Positions 26,687-60,073 of a stretch of 64,000 nucleotides of DNA are shown piece by piece. Each line of letters opens with the position of its first letter. Position 1 is the stretch's first letter. Position numbers and translations under genes: made by a program. The stretch spans positions 8,129 to 72,128 of the forward strand of contig CAZHKZ010000002.1 in the NCBI GenBank assembly GCA_964533055.1, written 5' to 3'. The notes below the pieces were generated by a model that was not told the DNA's origin, made no database searches, and saw only the letters and a list, made by a program, of their open reading frames with translations. Source of the DNA: an uncultured Gammaproteobacteria bacterium (GTDB lineage: Bacteria; Patescibacteriota; Microgenomatia; Levybacterales; UBA12049).

Positions 26687-27960
26687 TAGTTACAGTAGTT
26701 GCATTAGTAAGAAGGTTTATCAGGCATCCCCTAATCACAGGTAGTTCAATTGTCTTTATTGGTTCATTTTTAGTTAGTATTACAAACTATATTTATAATT
26801 TGTTAATGGGTAGATTCCTTTCTGTTCAAGATTATGGATTGCTGACCTCTCTTACCTCAATTTTGGTGTTATTAGGGTTGTTCAGTAACGCATTCACCAA
26901 TGTTTTTGTTAAATTCTCTGCATCTTTTAAAAGTCAGGAGAATGAAGGTGGGATAAATTTATTAAAAGCATATGGAATAAAGTCTTTAAGAATTTTCGCA
27001 CTTTGTCTTTTGGTTTTATTAGTAGTTGCCTCACCATTTATTCAGAAATTTTTACACATAGACCATATTGAATACATATTTTTAATAGTTAGCGCTGTTA
27101 TATTCTCATTATTCTTAACACTACCCCTTGGCATTTTACAGGGAAGAATGCAGTTCCTTTTATTATCAGCAGCGAATATCAGTCAGCCAATTATTAAGAT
27201 TATTGTTTCAGTTACCCTGTTAATATTAGGCTTCTCCGTAATTAGTCCGTTAATAGCAATTTCGGTTTCTACTTTAATACCTTTAATCATTCTTTATTAC
27301 ATGCTGTTTTCAAAAAATGGGAGGGGAATAAATAAGGACTTAGATGTTGGTCTATTCAGAAAAGACTTTATACATTTTTCCTATACGTTTTTTTTGGCTG
27401 GTGTTGGAATTGCTTTATTGTCGAATACAGATATTCTTCTAGTGAGGGTTTTCTTTAGCGATATCGTTTCTGGACAGTATGCAGCACTGTCGCTAATGGG
27501 AAAAGCGATATTCTATCTGATAATGCCGATAAATTTTGCCTTCTTTCCCTTAATAGCTTATAAGAGAGAAAGAAAAGAGAGATTATTTGGAACTGTTCTT
27601 CTTGCATTTTTGATTGTAGGATCAGCATCAATTCTCTTGTCCTTTATATATTTTGTTTTCCCATCACTAGTCTTGGGAATTTTCTTTCCAGCACCTGATT
27701 ATAAAGTACTTAAAGATTATCTTGGTATCTATTCAATCTATATTATTCTATTTTCATTCGCCACGTTGTTTGCCAATTTTTTCTTATCAATTGGTAAAAC
27801 CGACATTTATAAAATTTCATTGTTTGCAGCATTTTTTCAAATATTTGCGATCATCTTATTTCACAAATCATTACTTGAAGTAATTCTTTGTCTGCTTATA
27901 GTTTCATTATTGTTTTTGCTTGTCCTGATAGGCTATTATCTTAAGCATGGAAAAGATTAA
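26683..27960 (+). CDS. Wzx-like oligosaccharide flippase (MOP superfamily)
   Basis: 425 aa with about 12 TM helices. The N-terminus resembles polysaccharide-biosynthesis (Wzx) proteins. ATGA overlap. Confidence 0.6.
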   Translation: MIVTVVALVRRFIRHPLITGSSIVFIGSFLVSITNYIYNLLMGRFLSVQDYGLLTSLTSILVLLGLFSNAFTNVFVKFSASFKSQENEGGINLLKAYGIKSLRIFALCLLVLLVVASPFIQKFLHIDHIEYIFLIVSAVIFSLFLTLPLGILQGRMQFLLLSAANISQPIIKIIVSVTLLILGFSVISPLIAISVSTLIPLIILYYMLFSKNGRGINKDLDVGLFRKDFIHFSYTFFLAGVGIALLSNTDILLVRVFFSDIVSGQYAALSLMGKAIFYLIMPINFAFFPLIAYKRERKERLFGTVLLAFLIVGSASILLSFIYFVFPSLVLGIFFPAPDYKVLKDYLGIYSIYIILFSFATLFANFFLSIGKTDIYKISLFAAFFQIFAIILFHKSLLEVILCLLIVSLLFLLVLIGYYLKHGKD

Positions 27961-46136: not shown

Positions 46137-47069
46137 ATGATCAGTATCGTAGTCCCCGTATATAATGAGGAGGAGAGTCTCCAGGCATTTTATGATGAGT
46201 TGATCCTTCGTATCCCATCGTTTACCAAATCATATGAGGTTATTTTTGTAGATGATGGATCAACTGATGACTCCTTGAATATTCTTAAGAAATTAGCTCA
46301 AAAAGATAAGAATGTTAAGATATTTTCTCTCAGAAAAAATAGTGGCAAGGCAGAGGCTCTGACATTAGGCTTTCAGATGGCTAAGGGAAATGCAATTGTT
46401 ACTCTAGATGCAGATCTTCAAGATCAACCAAAAGAAATTCAGAAGCTTCTTTCACTGCAAAAAAATGGCGTGGATGTTGTCTGTGGCTGGAGAAAAGATC
46501 GTAAAGATAAATCCAAGATGAAGGTGATCTCGAAGATCTTTAACCTTTTAGTGCGTAAAGTCTTTGACATAAATATTCATGATTATAATTGCGGAATGAA
46601 ACTCTATACCTCTGAGGCAGCAAAAAGCCTGAGGTTGTATGGTGGGATGCATAGATTTATCCCAATCCTTGTGAGTGAGCAAGGCTTTAGTGTTGATGAA
46701 ATGCCAATAGAGCATGTACAACGTATGTTTGGCAAATCTAAATACGGCTTTTCAAAGATCTTCAAAGATGTTCCCGATATGTTCACTATGATATTTCTGA
46801 TGAAGTATCGCAAGCAGCCACTCCATTTCTTTGGCGCTATTGGTGGCGCAGTTTTTTCAGGTGGATTCGTTATTTTGTCTTATCTCACGCTCATTAAGCT
46901 CTTTTCAGGACAGTCTATCGGCGGGAGACCCCTTCTCTTTCTAGGAGTACTTCTTGTTGTAGTAGGTATACAAATCTTCTTTACTGGATTTCTAGCAGAG
47001 TTGATTATAAATATTTCGCAGAGAAATAGGCCAATATTGCCTCTTCGTTATAGTACTGATTCTCAATGA
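46137..47069 (+). CDS. GtrB/ArnC-like polyprenol-phosphate glycosyltransferase (GT2 with C-terminal TM helices)
   Basis: Reads ISIVVPVYNEEESLQAFYDEL...VIFVDDGSTDDS...NSGKAEALTLGFQMAKGNAIVTLDADLQDQP. Two C-terminal TM helices follow (FFGAIGGAVFSGGFVILSYL, LLFLGVLLVVVGIQIFF). Confidence 0.8.
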   Translation: MISIVVPVYNEEESLQAFYDELILRIPSFTKSYEVIFVDDGSTDDSLNILKKLAQKDKNVKIFSLRKNSGKAEALTLGFQMAKGNAIVTLDADLQDQPKEIQKLLSLQKNGVDVVCGWRKDRKDKSKMKVISKIFNLLVRKVFDINIHDYNCGMKLYTSEAAKSLRLYGGMHRFIPILVSEQGFSVDEMPIEHVQRMFGKSKYGFSKIFKDVPDMFTMIFLMKYRKQPLHFFGAIGGAVFSGGFVILSYLTLIKLFSGQSIGGRPLLFLGVLLVVVGIQIFFTGFLAELIINISQRNRPILPLRYSTDSQ

Positions 47070-47282: not shown

Positions 47283-47810
47283 ATGACAATTGGTATAGAT
47301 GTTTCACAGTTAGCATATCGGAATACTGGTGTTGCTAATTATCTCAAAAGCCTCCTGAACGCGCTGGTAAATGAGGACAATGATGTAAGGTACATCTTTT
47401 TTTTCTCAAGTCTACGTGGACAACTCGACGTATCAGATCTACCAAAAGGCCCGAACATTACTCTTAAGAAGTTTCCTTTCCCACCTGCGCTTCTTGCCCT
47501 TATTTGGAATAGGCTCCATATCCTGCCAATAGATTTGTTTATTGGTAAAGTCGATCTATTCTTGACATCAGACTGGACAGAGCCACCACTGAGAAACGGA
47601 AAAAAAGCGACAATACTTTATGACCTCATTGTCTATAAGAATCCAAATGAATCAGCAGATCTTATTGTTCAAAATCAGAAAAGAAAGCTACAATGGGTTA
47701 AGAAAGAGTCAGATCTAGTTTTTTGCATATCAGAGGCTACTAAGAATGACGCTCAAGAAGTACTGGGGATACATCCGGATAAAATGCATGTAATTTATCC
47801 AGGAATATAA
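47283..47810 (+). CDS. GT4 N-terminal domain only (truncated glycosyltransferase; possible pseudogene or stand-alone acceptor-domain protein)
   Basis: 175 aa starting MTIGIDVSQLAYRNTGVANY and ending ...KMHVIYPGI*. It aligns with residues 1-178 of the next gene (MIIGIDVNEAN...KVHVVYPGIKETM) and stops exactly at the boundary between the N- and C-terminal GT-B domains. Confidence 0.5.
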   Translation: MTIGIDVSQLAYRNTGVANYLKSLLNALVNEDNDVRYIFFFSSLRGQLDVSDLPKGPNITLKKFPFPPALLALIWNRLHILPIDLFIGKVDLFLTSDWTEPPLRNGKKATILYDLIVYKNPNESADLIVQNQKRKLQWVKKESDLVFCISEATKNDAQEVLGIHPDKMHVIYPGI

Positions 47811-47814
47811 AAGT

Positions 47815-48933
47815 ATGATAATTGGAATTGATGTAAATGAAGCAAATGTCGATCGAAAGGTTGGGATAAGTGAATATGTGTTCCAGCTTATGCGCCAGTT
47901 TAGCCATCTTGCATCAAAAGATATTGATTGGCAAGTCTATTTGAAGAATAACCCCTCAAAGGACTTCCCTGAGATGTCTGAGAAATGGGAATACAAAGTA
48001 TTTGGTCCTAAAAAATTCTGGACCCAATTTGCCCTTCCCCTAAAACTAGCTTTGACGAATAAAAAGCCAGATGTTTTTTTCTCACCAGGTCATTACTCTC
48101 CTCGATTCTCGCGAATTCCCAGAGTGATTTCTATCATGGATCTTGCTTTCCATCATTTTCCAGAGTATTTCACGACAAAGGATCTTGCCCAGCTTAAGTC
48201 GTGGACGAAATATTCCATACTTAAGGCAGATGCGATCATTACAATTAGCCAAGCAACTAAAGATGATATACTCAAGTTGTACGGTGTCAAAAGTGAAAAG
48301 GTTCACGTCGTTTATCCTGGAATTAAAGAAACTATGTCACTTGAGCCGCATATCTATCCTATGAAAGAATTAGAAAATAAATTTGGGATAACAAAGAAGT
48401 ATTTACTCTTTGTTGGTACTCTCCAGCCTCGTAAAAATATTAGACGCCTCATTGAAGCATTCTCAAAAGTTCATATAATCGATTCTGATTTGCAACTCGT
48501 TATTGTTGGAAGAAAAGGGTGGAAGTATGAAGAGATCCTTTCTGCTCCTGAGGAGTTTGGCGTGAAGGACTCTGTTGCGTTTCTAGATTTCGTCAAAGAT
48601 GAAGATCTCCAGATGCTTTATAAAGGAGCTCAGTGCTTTGTATGGCCTAGTCTATATGAGGGTTTTGGACTGCCAGTGCTTGAAGCAATGCAGTATGGAT
48701 GTCCAGTTATCACGAGCAATATTTCAAGTCTTCCAGAAGCGGGTGGAGATGCTGCTATCTATGTTGATCCTGAGAATGTCGATGATATTTCAGAGAAAAT
48801 TAAGAAAGTCTTGGAGGATAAAGAGCTGCGAGAAAGTATGATTAAAAAAGGGTATCAGCAAGTGAAAAAATTTAGTTGGGAAAAGGCTGCCAAAGAGACA
48901 CTTGAGATTATTAAGGAAGTTGTAAAAAAATGA
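47815..48933 (+). CDS. Family 4 (GT-B) glycosyltransferase
   Basis: Full length (372 aa). Reads KKYLLFVGTLQPRKN ... EGFGLPVLEAMQYGCPVITSNISSLPEAGGDAAIYVDP. Confidence 0.8.
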   Translation: MIIGIDVNEANVDRKVGISEYVFQLMRQFSHLASKDIDWQVYLKNNPSKDFPEMSEKWEYKVFGPKKFWTQFALPLKLALTNKKPDVFFSPGHYSPRFSRIPRVISIMDLAFHHFPEYFTTKDLAQLKSWTKYSILKADAIITISQATKDDILKLYGVKSEKVHVVYPGIKETMSLEPHIYPMKELENKFGITKKYLLFVGTLQPRKNIRRLIEAFSKVHIIDSDLQLVIVGRKGWKYEEILSAPEEFGVKDSVAFLDFVKDEDLQMLYKGAQCFVWPSLYEGFGLPVLEAMQYGCPVITSNISSLPEAGGDAAIYVDPENVDDISEKIKKVLEDKELRESMIKKGYQQVKKFSWEKAAKETLEIIKEVVKK

Positions 48934-49535
48934 AAGATAAATCAGGAGCACAATTATCACCTAGTAAAGTGGTAGCTAAAGGAGCATTTAGAATCTCGAC
49001 AATTGTTCTTGAGTTAGTGAATTATGTTCTCCATACAGTCTGCAATTTCCCATCGCATCACCTGCGTAGAGCTTTTTTGCGAATGGCTGGAATGAAAATT
49101 GGCAGAGGGTCGTCAATCCATATTGGGCCGAGGTTTTATGATGTCTCAAAGATAATTATTGGAAAGGACAGTATTGTTGGTGAATATGCAGTGCTCGATG
49201 GACGAGCCCCGTTGAAAATTGGTGATCATGTAGATATCGCATCAGAAGTTATGATCTATAACTCACAGCATGACATGGGTGCACAGAATTTTGCCGGAGT
49301 TGAAGATGTAGTGCTTGCACCAGTCGTGATTGAGGATTATGTGTTTATTGGGCCAAGGGCAATTATTCTTCCTGGCGTCACAATTGGGAAAGGAGCCATC
49401 GTGGGTGCTGGGGCAGTAGTTACAAAGGATGTTGATCCATTTGCGATTGTGGGTGGGGTGCCTGCAAAGGTTATTGGGGAGCGATCATTGAAGGATCCTG
49501 CCTACAAGCTTGGGAGAGCAGCATGGTTTCGATAG
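48930..49535 (+). CDS. Hexapeptide-repeat (left-handed beta-helix) sugar O-acetyltransferase (WcaF/WbbJ/MAT-like)
   Basis: Imperfect [LIV]GxxxxI repeats: IGRGSSIHIGP, IIGKDSIVGEYAVL, IGDHVDIA, VIEDYVFIGPRAIILPGVTIGKGAIVGAGAVV. The N-terminal amphipathic segment resembles that of WcaF. Confidence 0.75.
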   Translation: MKDKSGAQLSPSKVVAKGAFRISTIVLELVNYVLHTVCNFPSHHLRRAFLRMAGMKIGRGSSIHIGPRFYDVSKIIIGKDSIVGEYAVLDGRAPLKIGDHVDIASEVMIYNSQHDMGAQNFAGVEDVVLAPVVIEDYVFIGPRAIILPGVTIGKGAIVGAGAVVTKDVDPFAIVGGVPAKVIGERSLKDPAYKLGRAAWFR

Positions 49536-50371
49536 TCATACTCTCATACAATACCTCAGAGCTCTTGAAGAAATGTCTTGAGTCGATCTACCTTCATCTT
49601 CAGGGTAAATTCGAGGTCATAGTCGTTGATAACGCATCCAAAGATGAAAGTGTCAAAATGGTCAAAGATACTTTCAAGAAAGTTCGCCTTATTGAGAATC
49701 CTCATAATTCGGGATTTGCCGGCGGGTGCAACTTGGGAGCTGCGAGTGCAAAGGGTGAGCATATCCTATTCCTTAACTCTGATGCTGAGGTAAAGGATAA
49801 TCCACTTCCAATTCTTCTTCAGACATTTAATGATCACGATAATGTTGCAGTAGTGGGTGGAATTTTGGAGAACTATAATGGCTCTCTTCAGCGATCGTTT
49901 GGCGATTTTTATACAATTCCCAATATTATCACCTTACTTTTTGTTGGTGAAAATGGAGAGCTCAAAAAATACACAGATGAAAAAGAAATGGAGACTGACT
50001 GGGTGAGTGGGGGATTTATGATGACTGATTCGGCGCATTTTAGGTCTGTTAAGGGCTTTAATGAGTCATACTTTATGTACATCGAAGATATGGATCTTTG
50101 TTATAGATTGCGAAAGAAGGGGCTGAAGGTATTTGTGAATCCAGATGCGCGTATTAAGCATCTAGGACAGGGTAGCTCGAACAAAGCATTTGCAATTATT
50201 CACATCTATATGGGGCTGCAGATTTTTTATCAACAGCAAAGAGGTATACTGGAATACTACACCGTCAAGCTGTTATTATTAGTGAAGGCAGTACTAGCAC
50301 TGATAGTAGGTCTCCTAACCTTGAGGAAAAATCTTATCTCGACATATTACAAAGCACTAAAAACTTTATGA
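49523..50371 (+). CDS. Family 2 glycosyltransferase
   Basis: Reads VSIVILSYNTSELLKKCLESI...VIVVDNASKDES...LFLNSDAEV...GGFMMTDSAHFRSVKGFNESYFMYIEDMDLCYRLRKKG. Confidence 0.8.
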   Translation: MVSIVILSYNTSELLKKCLESIYLHLQGKFEVIVVDNASKDESVKMVKDTFKKVRLIENPHNSGFAGGCNLGAASAKGEHILFLNSDAEVKDNPLPILLQTFNDHDNVAVVGGILENYNGSLQRSFGDFYTIPNIITLLFVGENGELKKYTDEKEMETDWVSGGFMMTDSAHFRSVKGFNESYFMYIEDMDLCYRLRKKGLKVFVNPDARIKHLGQGSSNKAFAIIHIYMGLQIFYQQQRGILEYYTVKLLLLVKAVLALIVGLLTLRKNLISTYYKALKTL

Positions 50372-53300
50372 AAATATTAAAATTTGCAAAGAATAATGTT
50401 TTTCTGTTACTCACTCTTTTTCTTTTGGCATTTATACCTCTCTACCCAAAGCTTCCATTAGTTGATATCACTAATACATGGGTGTATATTCGTATTGAGG
50501 ATGTGCTAGTTGCGCTTACTTGGATCACCTTTTTTATTCTATTTTGGCGTAAAAAGGCTACTCTCAAGACTCCGTTAACGTATCCAATTCTTATATTCTG
50601 GGCAGTTGGAGCGCTTGCAACAATTCATGGTGTTATCTTTCTCTTCCCGAAGATCTCAGGACTTTTCCCACACTTGGCTCTCCTTAATTTCCTGCGAAGA
50701 GTTGAGTACCTTTCGGTCTTTTTTCTTGCTTTTAATGCAATGAGAAATAAAAAGTTTGTGACACCACTTATCTTCACCCTGGCTATTACGATGATTGGGG
50801 TCTTTATTTATGGTGTTGGGCAGAAATTCTTGGCCTTTCCAGCATTCTTGACCATGAACGAAGAGTTCGCAAAGGGAATTCCGCTGCGACTATCTCAAGC
50901 AGCACGTATTCCATCTACCTTTGGTGGTCATTATGATCTTGCTGCTTACCTTACACTCCTTATTCCAATTATGGGTGCTATGGTTTTTGGCTTTAAGAGT
51001 TGGTATGCAAAGATATTTTTTCTATTAACTTCAGTGAGCGGTCTTATCTTGCTCCTCATGACTGCTTCTCGCGTCTCCTATGGCGTATATCTTGTCTCAA
51101 TTGTCTTCCTCCTTGTGCTTCAAAAGGGAAAAAAATTCATTATCCCAGTTGTAATATTAAGTCTTTTATTAATGAGATCATTTGATGGCATTTCTCAGAG
51201 ATTTGCAAGTACATTTCAGCAGGTTGACCTCGCAGTTGATTCAAGAACTGGCAAAGCAATAGGTGTTATCTCACAAGGCGGTCAAGATACGGGTAAGATC
51301 GTGATTGAAGATAAAGAATCAACTGGTGAAAGTCTTCCACAGGGCTCAAAATACATCAATTTCCCAAGCACATCAGGTAAACAGTTTGAATCAGAGATCC
51401 TCTTTAAAAAATTAGGGAGCAATGGTCAGGAAGGAATGATTATTAGTAAGACAGGGACTATCATCGTGAAGAAGGCATTTGCTTATGACGTTTCATTTAC
51501 GACTCGCTTCCAGGGTGAATGGCCACGAGCAATTGAAGCACTTCAGCGCAATCTACTACTGGGAAGTGGTTATTCATCCATCAATCTAGCAACTGACAAT
51601 AATTATCTGCGCATGCTCGGTGAGACAGGGATACTTGGATTTGGTGCTTTTATCATGATCTTTGTTATCGCGACTATTTATGCATGGCGAGTTCTCCCAT
51701 CCATAACTGATCGAAAGACAAGAAGTCTTGTTTATGGGGTGATGGCTGGCGTATTGGCGCTCTCTCTGAATGCTGTTCTAATTGATGTATTTGAGGCATC
51801 GAAAGTTGCTTTTGTTCTCTGGCTGATAATGGGTTCGACTCTGGGACTTGTCCATCTGTATCAAGAAAAAGCTGTAAATTATGGTAAAGAGCTGCTTCGC
51901 ATCATTACATCAATTCCAGTTCTGGTCGCAGGAATTGCAATCTCAGGATCAATTATATTTTGGTCAATGATCTCGAATTATTTTGTTGGAGACGACTTTA
52001 CTTGGCTTCGTTGGGCAGCAGATTGCTCATCTCTTGTTTCACAAGGTGGGCCAAAAGTTTGTGGTTCATTAATTGAGACTATTTTGAGCTTTTTTACTCA
52101 TTCTCAGGGATTTTTCTATCGACCTGGAACGAAGACATTTTTCTATCTGATGTACCCATTGTTTGAATTATTCCCAACACCATATCATGTTGTCTCCCTA
52201 ATGCTTCATCTTATAAGCACATCTTTACTTTTTTTCATCTTTAAAAAGATTTTAGGCAGTAAATTATGGGCATTTGCTGGAGCACTTCTATTTATGGTCC
52301 TAAGTGTTCACGCAGAGTCAATTTACTGGGTCTCAGTTACGGGGCATATGATAACAGCCGTACTTATCTTACTTGCACTGCTTGCATATATGTATTGGAT
52401 GGAGACGAAGAATCATCTCCTCTTTATACTGGCATGGATAAGCGTGCTTGTCTCTACCTTCTTTCATGAATATGGAGCGATGGGCTCATTAATTCTTATC
52501 GCCTACGATATATTTAATTCACAAAAAATTACTTTTAAGAATGTTTTAAAGAGGTGGCATTACCTTGTGCTTCTGGCTCCGATTGTCATCTACGCAGTCC
52601 TTCGGACTAATGCATCTAGCTTCGTAACAGGGGGAGATTATTCGTATAGCTTGACAAATCTTCCATTTAATTTTGCCGGTAATTTAGCAGGTTATTTCTT
52701 TGCGACGATTATTGGACCGGTCTTCAATCCTATTTATACAGCTGTGAGAATGTACGCAAATTCACATATTCCAGTAGCAGTATTAGCGATGGTAGCTATC
52801 CTAATCGGGGCTATATCACTCTTTTTAAGGGCAAAGAATGTGAGGGAGCATCTTTTTGATAAGCAGATCTTATTTGCACTTACATTCTTTGTTGTAGGAC
52901 TAATTCCATTCTTAGGTTTGGGCAATCTTTCTGATAGATATGTTTATCTTGCCTCGGTAGGCCTAGTACTTGCTGTGATTATTATTCTTAAAAAGACGCT
53001 TAATATGAAAAGTAGAAATGTAGTTGTTGGTGCAGTCGTATTAGGTATTATCTACGGCTTTACCCAGATCTTTCAGCTTTTTTCAATTAATTCTGATTGG
53101 AGACAGGCAGGGAGAACATCAAATAACGCGCTCGTCGCATTATCATATGCGTATGCTAATACCGGCGCTCTTTCCTCAAAGCCAATATTCTATTTTGTAA
53201 ATGTCCCGATTAAGTATGGCGATGCTTGGGTGTTCCCCGTTGGGCTTCAGGATGCGCTGTGGTTTTCTTTTCAAAATACGCCATTGGTGATTGTGCAAAC

Positions 53301-53481
53301 TCAAGATGAAGCATCAGCTATGGAGCATGCCAAAAATGATACAGAGAATGTTCATGTGTTTAAATTTGAGAGTAATGGTGATTTGCTAGAGTTGAAAATC
53401 CCTGTAATTCCGGCTCCAATTAAATCGGGGCTAACTCCTACTCCAAAAACATCGGTAAAGTCAAAAACATCTGTTAAGTAG
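50368..53481 (+). CDS. Fusion membrane protein: O-antigen ligase/polymerase-like (Wzy_C) N-terminal domain plus a second polytopic GT-C-like domain, with a K/T/S-rich tail
   Basis: 1037 aa. The Wzy_C-type motifs are LLLMTASRVSYGVYL, a roughly 140-aa loop, then DNNYLRMLGETGILGFGAF. The WaaL consensus at that position is HNxYLxxLxExGIxG, but here the His position reads N. The second half is another roughly 10-TM domain containing NYFVGDDFTWLRWAAD. The C-terminus reads PTPKTSVKSKTSVK. Confidence 0.5.
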   Translation: MKILKFAKNNVFLLLTLFLLAFIPLYPKLPLVDITNTWVYIRIEDVLVALTWITFFILFWRKKATLKTPLTYPILIFWAVGALATIHGVIFLFPKISGLFPHLALLNFLRRVEYLSVFFLAFNAMRNKKFVTPLIFTLAITMIGVFIYGVGQKFLAFPAFLTMNEEFAKGIPLRLSQAARIPSTFGGHYDLAAYLTLLIPIMGAMVFGFKSWYAKIFFLLTSVSGLILLLMTASRVSYGVYLVSIVFLLVLQKGKKFIIPVVILSLLLMRSFDGISQRFASTFQQVDLAVDSRTGKAIGVISQGGQDTGKIVIEDKESTGESLPQGSKYINFPSTSGKQFESEILFKKLGSNGQEGMIISKTGTIIVKKAFAYDVSFTTRFQGEWPRAIEALQRNLLLGSGYSSINLATDNNYLRMLGETGILGFGAFIMIFVIATIYAWRVLPSITDRKTRSLVYGVMAGVLALSLNAVLIDVFEASKVAFVLWLIMGSTLGLVHLYQEKAVNYGKELLRIITSIPVLVAGIAISGSIIFWSMISNYFVGDDFTWLRWAADCSSLVSQGGPKVCGSLIETILSFFTHSQGFFYRPGTKTFFYLMYPLFELFPTPYHVVSLMLHLISTSLLFFIFKKILGSKLWAFAGALLFMVLSVHAESIYWVSVTGHMITAVLILLALLAYMYWMETKNHLLFILAWISVLVSTFFHEYGAMGSLILIAYDIFNSQKITFKNVLKRWHYLVLLAPIVIYAVLRTNASSFVTGGDYSYSLTNLPFNFAGNLAGYFFATIIGPVFNPIYTAVRMYANSHIPVAVLAMVAILIGAISLFLRAKNVREHLFDKQILFALTFFVVGLIPFLGLGNLSDRYVYLASVGLVLAVIIILKKTLNMKSRNVVVGAVVLGIIYGFTQIFQLFSINSDWRQAGRTSNNALVALSYAYANTGALSSKPIFYFVNVPIKYGDAWVFPVGLQDALWFSFQNTPLVIVQTQDEASAMEHAKNDTENVHVFKFESNGDLLELKIPVIPAPIKSGLTPTPKTSVKSKTSVK

Positions 53482-53487: not shown

Positions 53488-54945
53488 ATGTTTGGTAAAG
53501 ATAAATACACATTTCTCCTCCTTGTAATATTGATTGGCTGTATCTGCATTAGACTTTTTAGATTTAATGGTCCAATTGCTGACTGGCATAGTTGGAGACA
53601 GGCTGATACCTCATCTGTCTCTCGAACTTTCATCAATGAAGGATATGATCTTCTCCATCCAAAGTTTCATGACATATCTAATGTTGCTTCAAAACTTGAT
53701 AACCCAAATGGATATAGATTTGTTGAGTTTCCAATTTACAATGTTCTTCAAGCAGGTCTGACTCAATTTATTGGTATTCTTACTCTTGAGGAATGGGGGA
53801 GGATGATTAGCATCATTTCATCCGTATTGAGCACCTATATTCTTTATAAATTAGTTAGTAAATATACCAATAAAACTGCGGGGCTTTTTACTGCTTATTT
53901 CTATGCATTTATTCCCTTTAATGTTTATTATGGACGTACCATTTTGCCGGATCCATCAATGGTTTCGACCTCACTACTTGCGATCTACCTTTTTGATCTT
54001 TATTTGAAAAATAAGAGAGGTAAGTATCTTTTACTTGCTGGAGTGAGCGCATCGCTCTCGCTTCTTCTTAAGCCGTATGCGATTTTTTTTCTGGTTCCTC
54101 TGCCAGTCATGGCAATTTACACTTATAAGCTCGCGATCTTTAAGCAATGGAAGATCATTCTTGTCGGTATTTTTACAGTTATACCATTAATTCTCTGGAG
54201 GCAGTGGATGGTGCAATTCCCCGAGGGTATTCCAACAAATCAGTGGCTATTGAATGGAAATGGAATACGATTTAGACCCTCATTTCTCCGTTGGATGCTC
54301 TATGAAAGACTAACCAAGCTTATCTTAGGCTATTTCCTAGCCCCTATTCTCTTGCTGGGCGCATATAAGGTTTTTAAAGAGAAAGCATTTATGCTTTATT
54401 CATCAATTGTGCTTGGTGCTGCTCTCTATGTCGTAACGTTTGCGACTGGGAATGTGCAGCATGACTATTATCAAATACTTATTATGCCAAGCGTTGCATT
54501 ACTCCTAGGTCTTGGCGCATATCTTCTCAGTCAGAAAATTAGTGCTTGGTTGCCTTTACATTTGCGTAAGCATAATCCATATTTCGGAGTCCTTTTTATT
54601 CTCCTGATAAGTCTGATGAGTATGGGGCATTCCTGGATGAGCGTTAAGGAGTATTTTAATATCAATAATCGAGCGATCATAACTGCTGGGGAGGCAGTGG
54701 ATCGATTAACACCAAAAGATGCTCGTATTATAGCGCTCTACAATGGTGACACTTCATTTCTTTATCAAACAAAGAGAAAGGGTTGGGCGTCTCAGCAGAG
54801 TTCACTCCCGGAGATGATTAAGCTCGGCGCTTCATACTTGGTGATTACGAATCCAAATGGGTCTGATTATAATTTTTCTAAAGAATATCAAGCAGTAGTT
54901 TCAAATAAGACATTTCTTTTAGTAGATCTAAAAAAGCCATTATGA
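53488..54945 (+). CDS. GT-C family membrane glycosyltransferase (PMT_2/ArnT-like; WRQ-motif subgroup), paralog 5
   Basis: 485 aa and polytopic. The first loop reads PIADWHSWRQADTSSVSRTFINEGYDLLHPKF. The architecture matches the other PMT_2-like genes. Confidence 0.6.
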   Translation: MFGKDKYTFLLLVILIGCICIRLFRFNGPIADWHSWRQADTSSVSRTFINEGYDLLHPKFHDISNVASKLDNPNGYRFVEFPIYNVLQAGLTQFIGILTLEEWGRMISIISSVLSTYILYKLVSKYTNKTAGLFTAYFYAFIPFNVYYGRTILPDPSMVSTSLLAIYLFDLYLKNKRGKYLLLAGVSASLSLLLKPYAIFFLVPLPVMAIYTYKLAIFKQWKIILVGIFTVIPLILWRQWMVQFPEGIPTNQWLLNGNGIRFRPSFLRWMLYERLTKLILGYFLAPILLLGAYKVFKEKAFMLYSSIVLGAALYVVTFATGNVQHDYYQILIMPSVALLLGLGAYLLSQKISAWLPLHLRKHNPYFGVLFILLISLMSMGHSWMSVKEYFNINNRAIITAGEAVDRLTPKDARIIALYNGDTSFLYQTKRKGWASQQSSLPEMIKLGASYLVITNPNGSDYNFSKEYQAVVSNKTFLLVDLKKPL

Positions 54946-56126
54946 AAATTCTAATAGTTTCATCATATCTTCCGTACCCTCTGCTAAATGGTGGCAATAT
55001 TCGTCTTTACAATATTATTAAATCTTTAGGTGACAAACACGAAATAACTCTTGTGTGTGAAAAAAGAGAGGCACAAACTCAAGATGACATAAGAGAGGTC
55101 GAAAAGATCTGTAAAAAAGTTATAACAGTAAAGCGCAATAAGCAGTGGAGTATAACTAATGTTCTTAAGTCTGGATTTTCGTCAATTCCTTTTCTTGTAC
55201 AAGGGCATACCTCTAAGGAGTTCCAGGATGCCATTTCTGCAGAGCTTGATGCCGGTGGATTTGATTTGATTCATGTCGAGACATTTTATGTCATGCAAAA
55301 TGTTCCAGATTTCGCGCTCCCAATTGTGCTTGTTGAGCATAATATCGAGTACTTAGTCTATGAGAGATTTATGCAAAAAGTACCATTTATTCTTAAGCCA
55401 TTTTTAGCAATTGATATTAACAAAATTAAAAAAATTGAGATGGCTTTCTGGAATCAGGCGAAAATAATTGCAACTGTTTCGGATCAAGAAAGAAAAATCA
55501 TTGATAAGAATAATTGTTATGTTGTGGCAAACGGTGTTGATACAAAGCAGTTTGCTAAAAAAACAATTGATAAAGATTTTGCAAAAAAACAAAAGAAAGT
55601 CTTATTTATTGGTGACTATGCATGGTTGCAAAATAGCGACGCGGCACGTTATATCATTGAGGAAGTGTGGCCATTCCTCAGTTCTCAGGGAGATTTATCA
55701 CTTTGGATAGTGGGGCGCAATATGCCTCAAAGCCTTAAGGATCTTGGTAGGGGTGATAAGAGAATTTTTTTTGATGACAAGAATACTTCATCTGCTTCTG
55801 ATATTTTTACAGAGGCAGATCTTCTTCTTGCTCCAATTCGAGTTGGAGGGGGTACAAGCTATAAGATTATTGAATCAATGGCAGTTGGAACGCCTGTGGT
55901 TACGACTAGCTTGGGCCATGAAGGGATTGATGTTCAGAAGGATAGAGATATTCTAGTTGCAGATGATCCAGAGTCGTTGTCGCGAACAGTTAGTGATATT
56001 CTCTCAGATGAGGAGAGCTATCGAAAGCTCTCCAGTAATTCACGAAAAGCCGTTGAGAGTATTTATGATTGGTCCGTTATTGCAAAGAAAATGGATGAGG
56101 TCTACCAGAAGGCGGTGGGGAAGTAG
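54942..56126 (+). CDS. Family 4 (GT-B) glycosyltransferase
   Basis: Reads RVGGGTSYKIIESMAVGTPVVTTSLGHEGIDV (EX7E region). ATGA overlap. Confidence 0.8.
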   Translation: MKILIVSSYLPYPLLNGGNIRLYNIIKSLGDKHEITLVCEKREAQTQDDIREVEKICKKVITVKRNKQWSITNVLKSGFSSIPFLVQGHTSKEFQDAISAELDAGGFDLIHVETFYVMQNVPDFALPIVLVEHNIEYLVYERFMQKVPFILKPFLAIDINKIKKIEMAFWNQAKIIATVSDQERKIIDKNNCYVVANGVDTKQFAKKTIDKDFAKKQKKVLFIGDYAWLQNSDAARYIIEEVWPFLSSQGDLSLWIVGRNMPQSLKDLGRGDKRIFFDDKNTSSASDIFTEADLLLAPIRVGGGTSYKIIESMAVGTPVVTTSLGHEGIDVQKDRDILVADDPESLSRTVSDILSDEESYRKLSSNSRKAVESIYDWSVIAKKMDEVYQKAVGK

Positions 56127-57247
56127 TGAGAATAGGGATTGATGCTCGTTTTTGGAATGAAACCGGTGTGGGTCGCTATATTCAAAACCTTGTTGCCAAT
56201 ATCATTATTCTTGATAAGTCAAATGACTATGTGTTGTTTGTTCGATCTCAAGATCTCGCAAAAGTACAACTATTTACAAAGAATTCGAATTTCACATGCA
56301 TTCCGGTAGATATTCCGTGGCACTCTTTAAAAGAGCAAACGCAATTTACGTCAATCATTAAGGAGCAAAAAGTTGACCTCATGCACTTTCCTTATTTCTC
56401 AGTACCAATTAGCTTCAATGCTCCATTTATTATCACAATTCATGATCTTATTCTGCATCACTTCCCAACAGGTGAGGCAAGTACACTATTTTTGCCACTC
56501 TATTATGCAAAATGGCTTGGGTATAAATTAGTGATTGCATCAGCTGCGAGAAGGGCATTGCATGTATTAACAGTCTCGAATGCGACAAAGGATGAGATAA
56601 TTGATCATCTCGGAATTAAGAACGAGAAAATAAGCGTGATCTATGAAGGAGTGGATAGCCAGCTTTCATCCGTATCTTTGAAATCTCAAACAACAAAACC
56701 GGAAAAATATTTTCTCCATGTAGGTAATGTCTATCCTCATAAAGATCCGAAAGTTCTTGTTGATGCATTCTCAAAACTTAATGATGAGGCAGTCTCCCTT
56801 ATATTTGTTGGCAAACAAGATCACTTTATGAAGAAATTAGAGGAGTATGTTAGAAAAAAGCATCTTAAAAATATTGTGTTCAAAGGATTTGTGCCTGATG
56901 TTGAATTGGCAAATATGTATAGAAATGCACTTGCTACTGTAGTTAGTTCAAAAATGGAGGGGTTTGGTCTTCCTGCTGTGGAAGCGATGATAAATACATG
57001 CCTTGTTGTTTCATCAGACATCCCTTCATTGCGTGAGGTTACGAAAGGTAATGCACTGTTTTTTAAGCAAGGTGATGTGGAAGGCTTGAGTCAGCTCTTA
57101 CTTACTCTTGCTAAGGATGAGCAAAACAAGTATGCTTCCCAAAAGATAGACGCAGAAAAAATCGCAAAGGAATATTCATGGGAGAGAATGGCAAAGGAGA
57201 CTATAGCTCAATATGAAGGTTGCAATCGTATACGACAGGATAAATAA
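56126..57247 (+). CDS. Family 4 (GT-B) glycosyltransferase
   Basis: GTG start overlaps the upstream stop by 1 nt. Reads EGFGLPAVEAMINTCLVVSSDIPSLREVTKGNALFF. Confidence 0.8.
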   Translation: MRIGIDARFWNETGVGRYIQNLVANIIILDKSNDYVLFVRSQDLAKVQLFTKNSNFTCIPVDIPWHSLKEQTQFTSIIKEQKVDLMHFPYFSVPISFNAPFIITIHDLILHHFPTGEASTLFLPLYYAKWLGYKLVIASAARRALHVLTVSNATKDEIIDHLGIKNEKISVIYEGVDSQLSSVSLKSQTTKPEKYFLHVGNVYPHKDPKVLVDAFSKLNDEAVSLIFVGKQDHFMKKLEEYVRKKHLKNIVFKGFVPDVELANMYRNALATVVSSKMEGFGLPAVEAMINTCLVVSSDIPSLREVTKGNALFFKQGDVEGLSQLLLTLAKDEQNKYASQKIDAEKIAKEYSWERMAKETIAQYEGCNRIRQDK

Positions 57248-58307
57248 ATGGGGAGGTGCTGAACGAGTCCTCCTTGCTCTTCACGAGCTTTTTCCGAATG
57301 CACCACTCTTCACCTCAGTCTACTACAAAGAGAAGGCAGCATGGGCAAAAGATTTTGAAATTAGGCCATCTTTCCTCCAGAATTTTCCATTTGCCAAGGG
57401 TGGACACGAGCTTTATCCGATACTTATGCCACAGGTATTTGAATCATTTGATTTTGCAGAATATGATGTTGTGATTTCGGTGACTAGTGAGGCGGCGAAG
57501 GGAATTATCACCAAGCCAGGCACGTTGCATATTTGTTATTGTCTGACTCCAACTCGGTATCTTTGGAGTGGATATGATCAATATTTCCAAACTCCACTTG
57601 TTAGGTTTTTATCCTATCCATTTGTGAGATATCTGAGGATGTGGGAAAAAATTGCAGCCAATAGGCCTGATATTTTTGTTGCTATCTCACATGAGGTTCA
57701 AAACAGGATTAAGAGGTACTATCAAAGAGATTCTGCTGTAATTTATCCACCAGTAAGTCTCTTCGAGAGATATACACATTTAAGGCGAAAGCAAGGCGAG
57801 TATTATTTGGTTGTCTCAAGACTTGTGCCATATAAAAAAGTCGAACTAGCAATTAAGGCATGTAATACCCTAAAAAGAGATCTAGTTATTGTTGGTGTAG
57901 GTAGTGAGATGACTAGGCTTAAGAGGATAGCGGGCCCAACAGTGACCTTCAAAGGCTCGCTAACTGATGATGAGCTAGCAAATGTTTATGTAGGTGCAAA
58001 AGCAGTTATTTTCCCAGGTTTTGAGGATTTTGGTATTGTGATGGGAGAGGCTCTGGGTTTTGGTAAGCCAGTAATTGCGTACAAAAAAGGTGGGGCACTT
58101 GACCTCATCAAAGACAAGAAGACAGGAATTCTTTTTCAAGACCAGACGATTAAGTCCCTGACTCAGGCAATTCTGAATTTTGAAAAGACAGTTTTTCATA
58201 CAAAAGTTCTTGAAAGTGAAGCTAAACATTTCTCAAAGAAAGTATTTAAGGACTCAATCTCATTACTTATCGATCAGGCTTTGCAAAAGACAAGTTTCAT
58301 ACTATAA
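57213..58307 (+). CDS. Family 4 (GT-B) glycosyltransferase
   Basis: The N-terminus MKVAIVYDRINKWGGAERVLLAL is a typical GT4 start. C-terminal motif GFEDFGIVMGEALGFGKPVIAYKKGGALDLI. Overlaps the upstream gene by 35 nt. Confidence 0.8.
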   Translation: MKVAIVYDRINKWGGAERVLLALHELFPNAPLFTSVYYKEKAAWAKDFEIRPSFLQNFPFAKGGHELYPILMPQVFESFDFAEYDVVISVTSEAAKGIITKPGTLHICYCLTPTRYLWSGYDQYFQTPLVRFLSYPFVRYLRMWEKIAANRPDIFVAISHEVQNRIKRYYQRDSAVIYPPVSLFERYTHLRRKQGEYYLVVSRLVPYKKVELAIKACNTLKRDLVIVGVGSEMTRLKRIAGPTVTFKGSLTDDELANVYVGAKAVIFPGFEDFGIVMGEALGFGKPVIAYKKGGALDLIKDKKTGILFQDQTIKSLTQAILNFEKTVFHTKVLESEAKHFSKKVFKDSISLLIDQALQKTSFIL

Positions 58308-58320
58308 TAATTTTAATCGT

Positions 58321-59406
58321 ATGAAAGTTGTGCTTTTTGCAGGGGGAGTAGGATCAAGACTCTGGCCACTCTCAAGAAAAAATTCTCCTAAACAGTTCGG
58401 GAATATCATTGGTGACAAATCGATGCTTCAGATTGCAGTTCAGAAACTTTTCCCCACATTTGAATGGTCGGACGTTTTTATCTCTACAGGCAAGCAGTAT
58501 GCACAAACTGTGCGTGAACAATTATCACAGCTGCCAGCAGAGAATGTTATCGTTGAGCCAGAGATGCGAGATGTCGGTCCAGCGGTCGGACTCATTACCG
58601 CCCTCTTTGTCAAGAGTGATCCAAATGAGCCCATTGCTTTGCTTTGGGGAAGTGATCATCTAGTACGCGAAGAGGAGTTATTCCGAAAACTCTTAAAGAC
58701 AGCAGAGGGAATTGTGAAGCAAGACGGACAGAGAATAGTATTTTTGGCACAAAAGCCACGATTTGCAAATCAGAATTTGGGATACATAGAGTTCTCAGAT
58801 CAAGTTGACTCTGTTGATGGTATTTCAGTTTATAAATTCTCCAATCTTCATTACAGGCCTGAGCTTGAAAAGGCAAAAGAATGGGTTAAAGACGGCAAGC
58901 ATTCCTGGAATCTTGGATATTTCGTTACGACTCCTTCGTATCTCTGGAAGTTATTTGAGGAATTCTCGCCAGATCTTTTTGAAAAGCTTAAAAAAATTCA
59001 TGATGCAATTGGGACCCCAGATTATCAAAGAGTTCTTGAAGTAGTCTACCCAAGTGTTGAAAAGATCTCATTTGATAATGCAATTCTTGAGAAGATGGAT
59101 CCAAATTCAGGCTTTGTGCTTTCAGAGGATTTGGGATGGAGCGATGTGGGGGCGTGGGAGGCACTTAAAGAGGCATTATCGGATACAGAGGAAGAGAATG
59201 TTACAAAAGGAAATGTTCTTATCGAGAATACTCAGGACTCACTCGTTTTTAACTATAATGAACAGCTTGTAGTCGGAATTGATTTGCAAGGGATGGTAGT
59301 TGTAAATACAGGCGATGTTCTGTTGATCTGTCCAAAAGACTCAGTCCCCAAGATAAAAGAGATCGTGAGTAAGCTCTCAGGAACAAAACACGAACATCTT
59401 GCATGA
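58321..59406 (+). CDS. manC: Mannose-1-phosphate guanylyltransferase-like sugar nucleotidyltransferase (ManC type, no cupin/PMI domain)
   Basis: The N-terminus MKVVLFAGGVGSRLWPLSRKNSPKQF is the classic ManC/GMP G-G-x-G-x-R-L-W-P-L-S signature. The 361-aa product lacks the C-terminal isomerase domain. The track ORF at 58180 is an in-frame upstream extension. Confidence 0.8.
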   Translation: MKVVLFAGGVGSRLWPLSRKNSPKQFGNIIGDKSMLQIAVQKLFPTFEWSDVFISTGKQYAQTVREQLSQLPAENVIVEPEMRDVGPAVGLITALFVKSDPNEPIALLWGSDHLVREEELFRKLLKTAEGIVKQDGQRIVFLAQKPRFANQNLGYIEFSDQVDSVDGISVYKFSNLHYRPELEKAKEWVKDGKHSWNLGYFVTTPSYLWKLFEEFSPDLFEKLKKIHDAIGTPDYQRVLEVVYPSVEKISFDNAILEKMDPNSGFVLSEDLGWSDVGAWEALKEALSDTEEENVTKGNVLIENTQDSLVFNYNEQLVVGIDLQGMVVVNTGDVLLICPKDSVPKIKEIVSKLSGTKHEHLA

Positions 59407-59407
59407 C

Positions 59408-60073
59408 ATGCCTTATAAAGAAATCAAAAAAAGTAAAGGCTATGAGTTAATCAAGAGACTCCTTGATATTGTTTCATCTTTTTTTCTTCTCCTTTTTTTC
59501 TCTCCAATTATCATCATTGTTGCAATTGCAATAAAGCTTGATTCGCCAGGTCCTATTTTTGCTGATACCCCTCAGAGAGTCGGGAGAAATGGGAAGTTAT
59601 TCAAAATGTTTAAATTCAGATCAATGATACAAAATGCACATAACCTTTTGCGTGAAGATCCAGAGTTTGCCCTTCTTTATGAGCAATATAAGAAAGGTAG
59701 CTATAAGTTAAAGAGTGATCCGCGCATCACTCATGTTGGTAAATTTATTAGAAAACATTCACTAGATGAGGTGCCGCAGTTTCTTAACGTACTTCGAGGC
59801 GATATGAGCCTTGTTGGTCCTCGGGCATATTACCCAGACGAACTTGTTGAGCAGCAGAAGAACTATCCTGACACACAAGATGCTGTAAAGATTGTGCTCT
59901 CAGTTAAGCCTGGAATTACCGGGTATTGGCAGGTTTCTGGAAGAAGTGATATTAACTTCGATAAGAGAATAGAGATGGACGCAGACTATGTAAAAAAAAG
60001 ATCAATTGTTTTTGACATATTCTTAATGGCAAAGTCACCATGGGCAATGCTAACTGGTAAGGGTGCGCTCTAG
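59408..60073 (+). CDS. Initiating polyprenol-phosphate sugar-1-phosphate transferase (small monotopic PglC/WbaP C-terminal-domain type)
   Basis: One N-terminal TM helix, then ...IKLDSPGPIFADTPQRVGRNGKLFKMFKFRSM...DEVPQFLNVLRGDMSLVGPRA, the 'bacterial sugar transferase' signature. I prefer the ATG at 59408 to the TTG at 59399. Confidence 0.8.
   Translation: MPYKEIKKSKGYELIKRLLDIVSSFFLLLFFSPIIIIVAIAIKLDSPGPIFADTPQRVGRNGKLFKMFKFRSMIQNAHNLLREDPEFALLYEQYKKGSYKLKSDPRITHVGKFIRKHSLDEVPQFLNVLRGDMSLVGPRAYYPDELVEQQKNYPDTQDAVKIVLSVKPGITGYWQVSGRSDINFDKRIEMDADYVKKRSIVFDIFLMAKSPWAMLTGKGAL

Follow-up and report, generated by a model that had tools for sequence, protein, structure and literature searches.

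A conserved Microgenomatia protein joining a Wzy/WaaL-type domain to a PMT/ArnT-like GT-C domain

Introduction

Why should one polypeptide carry two membrane glycosyltransferase (GT) domains of different fold? The question is raised by a long open reading frame (ORF) in the 64,000-nt stretch of DNA analysed here, hereafter the window. There is almost no experimental knowledge of how the cell envelope is built in the candidate phyla radiation (CPR). The gene is found in hundreds of Microgenomatia species within a strongly conserved operon, and it unites the GT classes that use Und-PP-oligosaccharides and Und-P-monosaccharides. An original prediction described the product as a Wzy_C-like domain joined to a second GT-C domain, and we follow here what each half, the surrounding genes and the relatives in other genomes say about its function.

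Results

One conserved reading frame

The predicted 1037-codon ORF runs without interruption at 50368-53481 on the plus strand (Table 1). Its ATG and the stop codon of the GT2 gene upstream share 4 nt, and the next gene begins 6 nt beyond its own stop. Because of its length and its conservation at 38-98% identity, it is not a chance feature. Could two neighbouring genes have been joined artificially, in sequencing or assembly? The halves are indeed separate genes at some loci, and one metagenome contig (L006) has an in-frame TAG within the N-domain, inside the conserved IDVFEASK motif. However, independent assemblies supply more than 120 full-length homologues, at least 79 of the 80 related genome loci, each from a species genome, hold a single open frame through both domains, the interdomain linker is conserved among homologues, and the genuinely split genes gain about 30 residues and a basic N-terminus of their own, unlike a simple frameshift. 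This conservation already refutes the artefact, to which we give a negligible chance, and it settles the earlier worry that a frameshift or stop might divide the ORF.

At least 514 species genomes hold a relative of the fusion; almost all belong to Microgenomatia (Levy-, Gottesman-, Roizman- and Woesebacteria), and the fusion is a common, near-core gene of this CPR group. It had been called unusual, which holds for the literature searched, where the architecture is undescribed and nothing relevant was found for CPR/Patescibacteria, but not for its distribution. At three loci (L007, L008 and L092) the halves are adjacent, overlapping separate genes with the same synteny and with their motifs kept, the split at L008 being supported by gene calls and hmmsearch; such adjacency supports a functional link between the halves. 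L089 has a lone C-domain homologue, there being no Wzy_C gene within 6 kb, which indicates that a Wzy_C partner is not strictly required by this domain. Another candidate for a natural stand-alone C-domain, P0121, was rejected as an artefact of the in-frame TAG in L006; stop-codon reassignment was dropped for that contig, where the TAG replaces a conserved Glu codon. P0122, P0129, P0134, P0151 and P0167 look like fragments of fusions.

The AF2 model of the whole protein (pLDDT 79.3, pTM 0.80) predicts the interdomain packing confidently, with aa 402-417 (around D410) and a conserved loop at 162-179 modelled at pLDDT < 50. In the predicted topology every conserved motif falls outside the membrane, and R235, R380, D410, E419, D542, D543, R585, P586, E650, E701, R857 and Y858 are invariant in 59 sequences (43-98% identity). 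By the fold of both halves and by their motifs, a Wzy_C/WaaL-superfamily domain and an independent ArnT/PMT-type GT-C domain are genuinely fused in this protein, as had been proposed.

Table 1. Features of the fusion gene and its surroundings (window positions; aa, residues of the fusion protein).
Feature	Position	Strand	Remark
Wzx-type (Polysacc_synt) flippase candidate	26683..27960	+	22 kb upstream of the fusion
702-aa stand-alone paralogue of the C-domain	37595..39703	+	SDE replaces GDD; hhalign probability 97.5%
ArnC/PgfS/AglJ-like GT2, likely polyprenyl-phosphate monosaccharide synthase	46137..47069	+	E 3.9e-51 full length, below equivalog cut-off; syntenic in L002, L004
Conserved upstream genes: GT4 N-terminal half, GT4, hexapeptide acyltransferase, GT2	47283..50371	+	same order in L002, L004, L008, L092
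Complete 1037-aa ORF	50368..53481	+	>120 full-length homologues; one open frame in 79/80 genome loci
N-terminal domain, aa 1-497, 12 TM helices, Wzy/WaaL-type (GT-C_B) fold	50368..51858	+	both termini cytoplasmic
Stretch matching Wzy_C (Pfam), aa 221-429	51028..51654	+	below threshold in this copy
T232-A-S-R235	51061..51072	+	T232 and R235 invariant; hhalign pairs R235 with E. coli WaaL R215
Beta-rich insertion, aa 283-373, in the large outer loop	51214..51486	+	strands at pLDDT about 50-65, a low-confidence model
R380 within T-T-R-F-Q-G-E-W-P...L-L-G-S-G	51505..51507	+	invariant
D410-N-N-Y-L-R-M-L-G-E-T-G-I-L-G424	51595..51639	+	D410 at the putative O-antigen ligase catalytic His position; conserved
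Short basic cytoplasmic linker joining the domains, aa 498-515	51859..51912	+	split-gene break point in L007, L008, L092
C-terminal membrane domain, aa 516-928, GT-C_A fold, PMT/ArnT/TMTC-like	51913..53151	+
N537-YFVGDDFTWLRW-549, acidic DD motif in first outer loop, right after TM1	51976..52014	+	D542, D543, W546 invariant
Small C-terminal mixed alpha/beta soluble domain, aa 929-1012	53152..53403	+	predicted outside the membrane; W954, P957, D962, W965 conserved
18-nt unit x2, encoding the KTSVKS-KTSVK tail	53444..53479	+	disordered, not conserved
Stand-alone PMT_2 GT-C gene directly downstream	53488..54945	+	conserved neighbour
Three GT4 genes, ManC-like NDP-sugar pyrophosphorylase, WbaP-type phosphoglycosyl transferase	54942..60073	+	syntenic in L004

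The N-terminal half resembles WaaL but carries an acid at the His position

The N-terminal half adopts the GT-C_B fold with 12 TM helices; a large outer loop precedes the last three of them, and the best structural match of this half is WaaL (CAZy GT121; PDB 7TPG/7TPJ). It shares with WaaL a T-x-x-R after TM7, a large outer loop before TM10 and an N-x-(Y)-L-x-x-L-x-E-x-G-x-x-G segment running into TM10. Both the T-A-S-R signature and the periplasmic loop of roughly 140 aa that had been foreseen are present, the former conserved and the latter about 142 aa long (aa 271-412). In the alignment with WaaL, R235 is the counterpart of the first diphosphate-binding Arg, R215 of the E. coli enzyme; R380 would correspond to the second, going by the R-x3-W...P-l-l-G-x-G pattern of Wzy_C/WaaL and not by an alignment. 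The suggested PF04932 (Wzy_C) check was answered in part: aa 221-429 match profile positions 2-149 of 149 (E 2.7e-6), but at 27.7 bits, under the gathering score of 31.7. A precomputed match to this model exists in 83 of 120 homologues. PF13425, suggested as well, does not match the protein.

The likeness to WaaL has its bounds. The family profile found no match among PDB chain sequences at E up to 10, and none at the sequence level to any solved WaaL. The outer loop of WaaL is reported to be mainly helical, whereas that of the fusion is modelled, at low confidence, with a beta-rich insertion of about 90 residues. Moreover, the N-half is joined to a second membrane GT and, to our knowledge, Patescibacteria lack a lipid A-core and the host has no LPS.

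A further difference lies at the catalytic residue of the ligases, an acceptor-activating His in WaaL. The original prediction of a His-to-Asn change was off by one residue: in the ligase register H-[NSQ]-x9-G-x-x-[GTY] (E. coli WaaL H338-N339...G349..G352), D410 fills the His position and N411 is the canonical Asn. Residue 410 is Asp in all 59 aligned members and, by pattern match, at 77 of 79 genome loci. When a greedy hhalign run (-mact 0.02) was used to align the family with E. coli WaaL, D410 fell on H338 and R235 on R215, which at a probability of only 4.7% is support and not proof; the default run aligned the T-x-x-R region only, with very low probability. Motif spacing and this low-probability alignment together suggest that D410 is the equivalent of the catalytic His.

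SEDS enzymes and inverting Wzy families have a conserved acid (Asp/Glu) where the ligases have their His (PMC10920833). Such a residue is normal in these enzymes, so D410 points to a polymerase-like or generic GT-C1 enzyme and not to a crippled ligase. With the inverting Wzy and SEDS polymerases (CAZy clan GT-C1: GT119, GT125-129) the N-half shares the clan-level fold, and these enzymes likewise have one or two conserved diphosphate Arg (PMC10920833). The catalytic His of the ligase register, as in GT121, is absent, and the acid of the inverting Wzy enzymes is found instead. NCBI names the homologues 'O-antigen ligase family protein'; taken strictly, 'O-antigen ligase' is wrong for the fusion protein, and the database naming is corrected accordingly.

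The C-terminal half belongs to a GT-C family of its own

The second multi-helix membrane domain with an acidic loop motif, as predicted, is there, with D542, D543 and W546 invariant. The motif is followed by an invariant C553/C565 pair and then F582-F-Y-R-P-G587. The DD and F582-F-Y-R-P-G587 motifs are the counterparts of TMTC motifs M1 (DD) and M2 (SYRP), and the DD, YRP, (K/H)E and Arg-before-TM motifs match active-site and donor-binding motifs of TMTC/PMT/ArnT (PMC7801869). Like PMT_2, ArnT, PMT and the TMTC N-terminal domain (GT-C_A; GT83, GT39, GT105), the C-half thus has DD right after TM1, YRP in the first outer loop, the (K/H)E motif and a conserved Arg before a late TM helix. It differs in having His700 where the donor-phosphate Lys of the KE motif is expected, in the invariant first-loop Cys pair, in its own small C-terminal domain with no MIR or TPR modules, and in its place behind a Wzy_C domain. 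Distant relatives keep D542/D543 as DD/DE. For the PMT/PMT_2 paralogue in the window, an alignment of 38% probability pairs its loop Asp with D542.

The C-domain is matched by none of the Pfam and NCBIfam models, PMT (PF02366) and PMT_2 (PF13231) included, the latter having been suggested for this protein. Nine of ten C-domain homologues scanned with PMT_2/PMT had no match; a remote relative, P0269, passes PMT_2 at 27.5 bits against a threshold of 26.1. The closest sequence relatives are protein O-mannosyltransferase-like, and distant ones have TMTC-like TPR tails or PMT_2 matches. The downstream PMT_2 gene gave no BLASTP match to the C-domain, the sole link being a profile match to another PMT_2 paralogue. 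The C-domain defines a GT-C family that so far has no Pfam model.

These substitutions invite the reading that one half is catalytically inactive, a scaffold or lipid-carrier-binding module like the GT-C-fold PIG-U in GPI transamidase, leaving the protein a single activity. The N-half indeed lacks the canonical His, and His700 stands in for the donor-phosphate Lys of the C-half. However, R235, R380 and D410 in the N-half, and D542, D543, R585, E650, E701 and R857 in the C-half, are invariant at the expected active-site positions across 38-98% identity, and the motifs are kept even where the halves are separate genes. We regard an inactive half as improbable.

The operon fits two lipid-linked donors

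The operon keeps its gene order at 43-47% identity. The WbaP-type phosphoglycosyl transferase (PGT) at 59399-60073 is the predicted initiator of an Und-PP-linked glycan. This PGT and the GT2/GT4 enzymes would supply an Und-PP-oligosaccharide donor, and the ArnC/PgfS-like GT2 an Und-P-monosaccharide donor; the earlier idea that en-bloc glycan transfer is coupled with single-sugar addition fits this content. The GT2 at 46137-47069 is the likely source of donor for the GT-C_A domains, and the gene cluster holds many further GT-C genes that are equally possible users of the Und-P-sugar. The Wzx candidate may belong to the same pathway as the fusion.

The conserved operon yielded no second Wzy-type polymerase, and there are no lpx or waa genes in the window. 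As the one Wzy-like gene of its operon, alongside a WbaP-like initiating transferase, the fusion resembles inverting Wzy enzymes; unlike them, it has no chain-length regulator identified.

Discussion

Overall, we lean towards a fusion with two activities on the outer face: polymerisation or ligation of an Und-PP-linked glycan, and the addition of one sugar. The analysis shows how each half folds, how the protein lies in the membrane, that motifs, fusion and operon are conserved and that split-gene versions exist; the donors, the acceptors, the order of the two reactions and the choice between polymerase and ligase we infer. Speaking against this reading are the sub-threshold Wzy_C score of this copy, the lack of a profile match to any solved structure, the low probability of the alignment behind the D410-His equivalence, the low pLDDT around D410 and in loop 162-179, the 22 kb to the Wzx candidate, the lone C-domain at L089 and the other GT-C genes that could use the Und-P-sugar. 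The N-domain (Wzy/WaaL/SEDS superfamily, GT-C_B, CAZy clan GT-C1) would bind the Und-PP-oligosaccharide through R235 and R380, and D410, replacing the ligase His, would activate the acceptor hydroxyl. The glycan may then be moved en bloc to another repeat unit, as by a Wzy-like polymerase, or to a terminal acceptor, as by a ligase. The C-domain (GT-C_A) would take the polyprenyl-monophosphate sugar made by the operon's ArnC/PgfS-like GT2 and attach it at the D542-D543 loop; the recipient would be the same acceptor or product, which is thereby primed, as happens in WadA, or decorated.

WadA of Brucella and Mesorhizobium is a bimodular ligase (GT121 + GT25) whose second module is the GT producing the acceptor for the first (PMC10920833). 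Like the fusion, it places a Wzy_C-superfamily domain and a second GT acting on the same glycoconjugate in one polypeptide. The WadA partner, however, is a soluble, nucleotide-sugar-dependent GT-A enzyme (GT25) on the cytoplasmic side, whereas that of the fusion is a membrane GT-C_A domain, presumably polyprenyl-phosphate-sugar dependent, with an outer-face site.

This precedent also speaks for a true WaaL/PglL-like ligase, in which the N-domain would make a single transfer of a finished Und-PP-oligosaccharide to an acceptor that could be a protein (S-layer or pilin), a lipid or the wall, after the PMT-like domain had installed the acceptor sugar, as the GT25 module of WadA does. The structural match to WaaL, the NCBI label and the protein O-mannosyltransferase-like relatives of the C-domain agree with it, and the operon's approximately eight cytoplasmic GTs could make one long oligosaccharide rather than a repeat unit. 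Yet the ligase-defining His is absent from every member, the acid in its place is the polymerase/SEDS state, and the conserved operon without another Wzy-type polymerase and a host presumed to lack lipid A-core also stand against a ligase, which leaves this reading rather unlikely. Within the bifunctional enzyme, a Wzy-like polymerase is slightly favoured over a ligase because of the acid residue D410.

More tentatively, and at somewhat less than an even chance, the fusion could be the core machine for a Microgenomatia-specific envelope glycopolymer or glycoprotein. It would hold two lipid-linked-donor sites side by side on the outer face, the PMT-like site priming or branching with an Und-P-sugar and the Wzy/WaaL-like site at once polymerising or ligating the Und-PP-oligosaccharide onto it. 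If so, the GT-C_A and GT-C_B classes would be physically coupled in a direct way, which is so far undescribed. Should both sites share one substrate, the fusion would be a natural model for coordinating en-bloc glycan transfer with single-sugar addition. As one chain with confidently predicted interdomain packing, it would also be a compact structural target.

A last observation concerns the extreme C-terminus, where a K/T/S-rich repeat had been noted. The repeat is real, but it amounts to 2.0 copies of an 18-nt unit at 53444-53479, is missing from homologues below about 90% identity, and is a trivial duplication without conserved significance.

Architecture of the fusion protein

The fusion gene runs without interruption from ATG to TAG. 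Four nucleotides are shared between its start and the stop of the preceding GT2 gene, and 6 nt separate its own stop from the following gene, which places it in a tightly packed operon. In a Pfam scan only Wzy_C (PF04932) is matched, at residues 221-429 and profile positions 2-149 of 149, with a score (E 2.7e-6, 27.7 bits) that narrowly misses the gathering score of 31.7. Among the profiles named in the original prediction, this one is therefore recovered over its full length, though below threshold, while PF13425 and PF13231 gave no match. The NCBIfam scan returned a weak IctB-family match alone, the C-terminal half matched nothing in the Pfam or NCBIfam libraries, and a sequence search with the family profile reached no solved structure, even with E values as high as 10 allowed. 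The PMT_2 threshold of Pfam is also missed; the fusion nevertheless has both folds, of the Wzy_C and PMT_2 types, despite missing both thresholds.

An AlphaFold2 model was built from a 59-sequence alignment (mean pLDDT 79.3, pTM 0.80). Its N-terminal half has 12 transmembrane helices, with a large loop (residues 271-412) between helices 9 and 10 that carries a beta-rich insertion (residues 283-373) of low model confidence; the periplasmic loop of about 140 residues expected earlier is thus found as an outer loop of about 142. A basic linker of 18 residues leads into the C-terminal half, in which one transmembrane helix, a long outer loop with short helices and about ten further transmembrane helices precede a small alpha/beta domain (residues ~929-1012). 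Structural comparison of this half gave figures of 19.5 for ALG12, 18.8 for Pmt4, 18.6 for STT3B, 17.6 for AglB, 17.3 for Pmt2, 16.3 for AftA, 16.2 for ArnT and 14.8 for PglB. Foldseek returned the same two fold groups, and on this basis the modelled protein combines an N-terminal GT-C_B (Wzy/WaaL/SEDS-type) domain with a C-terminal GT-C_A (PMT/ArnT/OST-type) domain. By hydropathy, charge distribution and helix count, the N-terminus, the linker and the short basic loops lie inside, and every conserved motif of both halves lies outside.

The motifs read earlier from the sequence are all present: T232-A-S-R235 and D410-N-N-Y-L-R-M-L-G-E-T-G-I-L-G424 in the N-terminal half, N537-Y-F-V-G-D-D-F-T-W-L-R-W549 in the C-terminal half, and the tail PTPKTSVKSKTSVK. 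The tail, which Tandem Repeats Finder resolves into a short repeat, is disordered and without conservation and can no longer be regarded as a significant feature. Few parts of the fusion are as strongly conserved as the TM5-TM6 outer loop (FPAFLTMNEEFAKGIPLRLS...RIPSTFGGHYD); it has numerous invariant residues yet a pLDDT of ~41, and may form a substrate-binding lid.

Coordinates of features in the window and, where a handle is given, in homologous loci from other genomes
Locus	Position (nt)	Feature	Remarks
Window	50368-53481 (+)	Fusion gene	1037 aa
Window	50830-50928	TM5-TM6 outer loop	aa 155-187
Window	52024-52062	C553/C565 pair	aa 553-565
Window	53444-53479	Tail repeat	18-nt unit, 2.0 copies, 88% matches
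Window	1-62100	Glycan-assembly super-cluster	nearly all + strand
Window	42-983	Wzx-type flippase	partial
Window	26683-27960	Wzx-type flippase	22 kb upstream of the fusion
Window	4679	YfhO, GT-C-type
Window	10539, 12175 (to 13839), 18416, 22516, 53488	PMT_2, GT-C-type
Window	14476, 16166	PTPS_related, GT-C-type
Window	37595-39703	Stand-alone C-domain paralogue, GT-C-type	702 aa
Window	40418	DUF5667 and weak AftD, GT-C-type	1140 aa
Window	47283-47810	GT4 N-terminal half only (Glyco_transf_4)	175 aa
Window	60117-62054	DUF4012 protein	645 aa
L006	2985-2993	In-frame TAG	two called genes
L007		Split pair	528 aa + 516 aa; 11-nt overlap; ~30 extra tail residues; new basic N-terminus
L008		Split pair	507 aa + 498 aa
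L092		Split pair	531 aa + 470 aa
L089	6001-7482, 10492-13482	Stand-alone C-domain homologue adjoining ABC-2-type transporter

The catalytic position of the N-terminal half

The ligase motif of WaaL is H-[NSQ]-x9-G-x-x-[GTY], represented in E. coli K-12 WaaL by H338-N339-...-G349-x-x-G352. Counted back from G421 and G424, D410 occupies the His position of the fusion and the canonical Asn corresponds to N411, so that the suspected His-to-Asn change arose from a register one residue off. Greedy hhalign of the family against E. coli WaaL places R235 on R215 and D410 on H338, albeit at low probability. D410 is invariant in the 59-sequence alignment and was found by pattern in 77 of 79 genome loci, the remaining two being pattern misses. 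For clan GT-C1, Meitil et al. (2024, PMC10920833) report that the essential Asp of SEDS polymerases falls, in alignment, where O-antigen ligases have their acceptor-activating His. Asp at the His position is thus a known and catalytically competent state, and D410 points to a polymerase-like enzyme and away from a strict ligase. The defining His of the O-antigen ligases is missing from the fusion, and its database name 'O-antigen ligase family protein' can serve at most to label the superfamily. Further, the invariant R380 lies within T-T-R-F-Q-G-E-W-P...L-L-G-S-G, and we infer from its fit to the R-x3-W...P-l-l-G-x-G pattern that it could be the second diphosphate-binding Arg.

Relatives and motifs of the C-terminal half

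A profile of residues 500-1037 finds the 702-aa paralogue in the window (hmmsearch E 5.7e-11; hhalign probability 97.5%), which has S-D-E where the fusion has G-D-D. It also weakly finds the PMT/PMT_2 protein at 12175 (hhalign E 3e-4, probability 38%), with D542 aligned on the loop Asp of that protein. With this half alone as the query, 1.84 billion representative proteins yielded 12,224 matches at E ≤ 1e-3, of which 87 had E ≤ 1e-30. Ten C-domain homologues were scanned against Pfam: seven had no match, the remote members P0250 and P0255 matched only TPR families in a TMTC-like TPR tail, and P0269 alone passed the PMT_2 threshold.

In an alignment with sequences down to 20% identity, conservation is retained for D542/D543, the Y-R-P of F582-F-Y-R-P-G, H-x-E650-x3-W654, (K/H)-E701 and R857-Y858. 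The active and donor-binding sites of the TMTC, PMT and ArnT proteins comprise DD (M1), SHKSYRP (M2), KE (M4) and an Arg before TM10 (Eisenhaber et al., PMC7801869), and the conserved motifs of the C-terminal half match M1, M2, M4 and this Arg. The donor-phosphate Lys of those enzymes is replaced by His700, which is peculiar to the fusion family. Equally peculiar to it is the invariant C553/C565 pair in the first outer loop, just past the DD motif, which is missing from more distant stand-alone relatives and likely forms a disulfide.

Conservation and natural splits

More than 120 full-length homologues of ~1010-1070 aa, at 42-98% identity, came out of a database of 5.8 billion proteins. The few that are named appear as 'O-antigen ligase family protein' or 'hypothetical protein' of Candidatus Levybacteria or the Patescibacteria group; among 120, a precomputed Wzy_C match was present in 83 and other Pfam domains in none. 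With each GTDB species represented by one genome, relatives were found in at least 514 genomes, the best 80 of which belong to Levy-, Gottesman-, Roizman- and Woesebacteria and unnamed Patescibacteria. The fusion is common in its clade.

A single open frame with the N-domain IDV[FY]EASK motif is found in 79 of these best 80 loci, and bar a few truncated loci (the shortest with 212 residues after the motif) it continues for ~500-560 residues, median 544, through the C-domain. The frameshift or stop that had been feared to split the gene is excluded by this conserved frame. Many of the MAG contigs with this Microgenomatia-type gene (L009, L011, L017 and others) are titled 'uncultured Gammaproteobacteria bacterium', and Limnocylindrales, Pacearchaeota and Saccharimonadales stand in the title of one species-representative contig apiece; such titles seem to be placeholders or the result of mis-binning.

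Genuine adjacent gene pairs for the two halves were found at three loci (L007, L008 and L092), with the same neighbours and with the T-x-S-R, D-x-x-[YF]-x-R and DD motifs retained. The occurrence of one pair in fused and adjacent-split states is a classical sign of functional partnership. Moreover, L090 has the fusion and an additional stand-alone C-domain paralogue. In one lineage, at L089, the stand-alone C-domain adjoins an ABC-2-type transporter and no Wzy_C gene lies within 6 kb of it, which suggests that the PMT-like enzyme may work in pathways that depend on an ABC transporter as well.

The apparent stand-alone C-domain on metagenome contig L006 was rejected as a natural split, as the codon for the nearly invariant Glu of IDVFEASK is an in-frame TAG there; the gene may be a pseudogene, or the stop may stem from an error in sequencing. 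The representative proteins P0122 and P0129 start at the same spot, and may do so from the same cause. Several other short representatives were rejected as fragments.

Operon context and proposed mechanism

The fusion is preceded by ArnC/PgfS-like GT2 - GT4 N-terminal half - GT4 - hexapeptide acyltransferase - GT2 and followed by PMT_2 - GT4 - (GT2) - GT4 - GT4 - ManC-like pyrophosphorylase - WbaP-type phosphoglycosyl transferase - DUF4012, an order retained at loci where the fusion is just 43-47% identical. By this gene content, the operon encodes what is needed to make an Und-PP-linked oligosaccharide, the putative donor of the N-terminal half, and also a likely Und-P-monosaccharide synthase that would supply GT-C_A domains. 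The N-domain profile found no second Wzy-like gene in the window.

Beyond the observed folds, motifs, topology, conservation and gene linkage, we infer substrates, reaction order and a polymerase or ligase role as follows. Both active sites would face outward. The N-terminal half would take up a flipped Und-PP-glycan, hold its diphosphate by R235 and R380, and transfer the glycan with inversion to an acceptor hydroxyl activated by D410, the acceptor being either another unit (polymerase, slightly favoured) or the final acceptor (ligase). The C-terminal half would add a single sugar from an Und-P-sugar via its DD loop. With WadA, a bimodular ligase (PMC10920833), as the analogy, this step might make the acceptor; alternatively, it might decorate the product. 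WadA is a precedent for a Wzy_C-type domain and a second glycosyltransferase in one protein; however, its partner domain is a soluble GT25, whereas that of the fusion is GT-C_A. Neither a GT-C_B and GT-C_A fusion nor this Microgenomatia family is described in the searchable literature, and the fusion is mechanistically suggestive.

Nearly all of the window is one glycan-assembly super-cluster, with about ten GT2 and eight GT4 genes, sugar-modifying enzymes and at least 11 GT-C-type membrane proteins, several of them as tandem paralogue pairs. The GT4 half-gene, directly 5' of a full GT4 gene, is kept separate at ~180 aa in the homologous loci L002, L004 and L008, and for this reason the two may form a two-subunit GT-B analogous to Alg13/Alg14. 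The DUF4012 gene, directly after the phosphoglycosyl transferase gene, ends the conserved operon here and likewise in L004, and its product is a candidate for a role in chain length or export.
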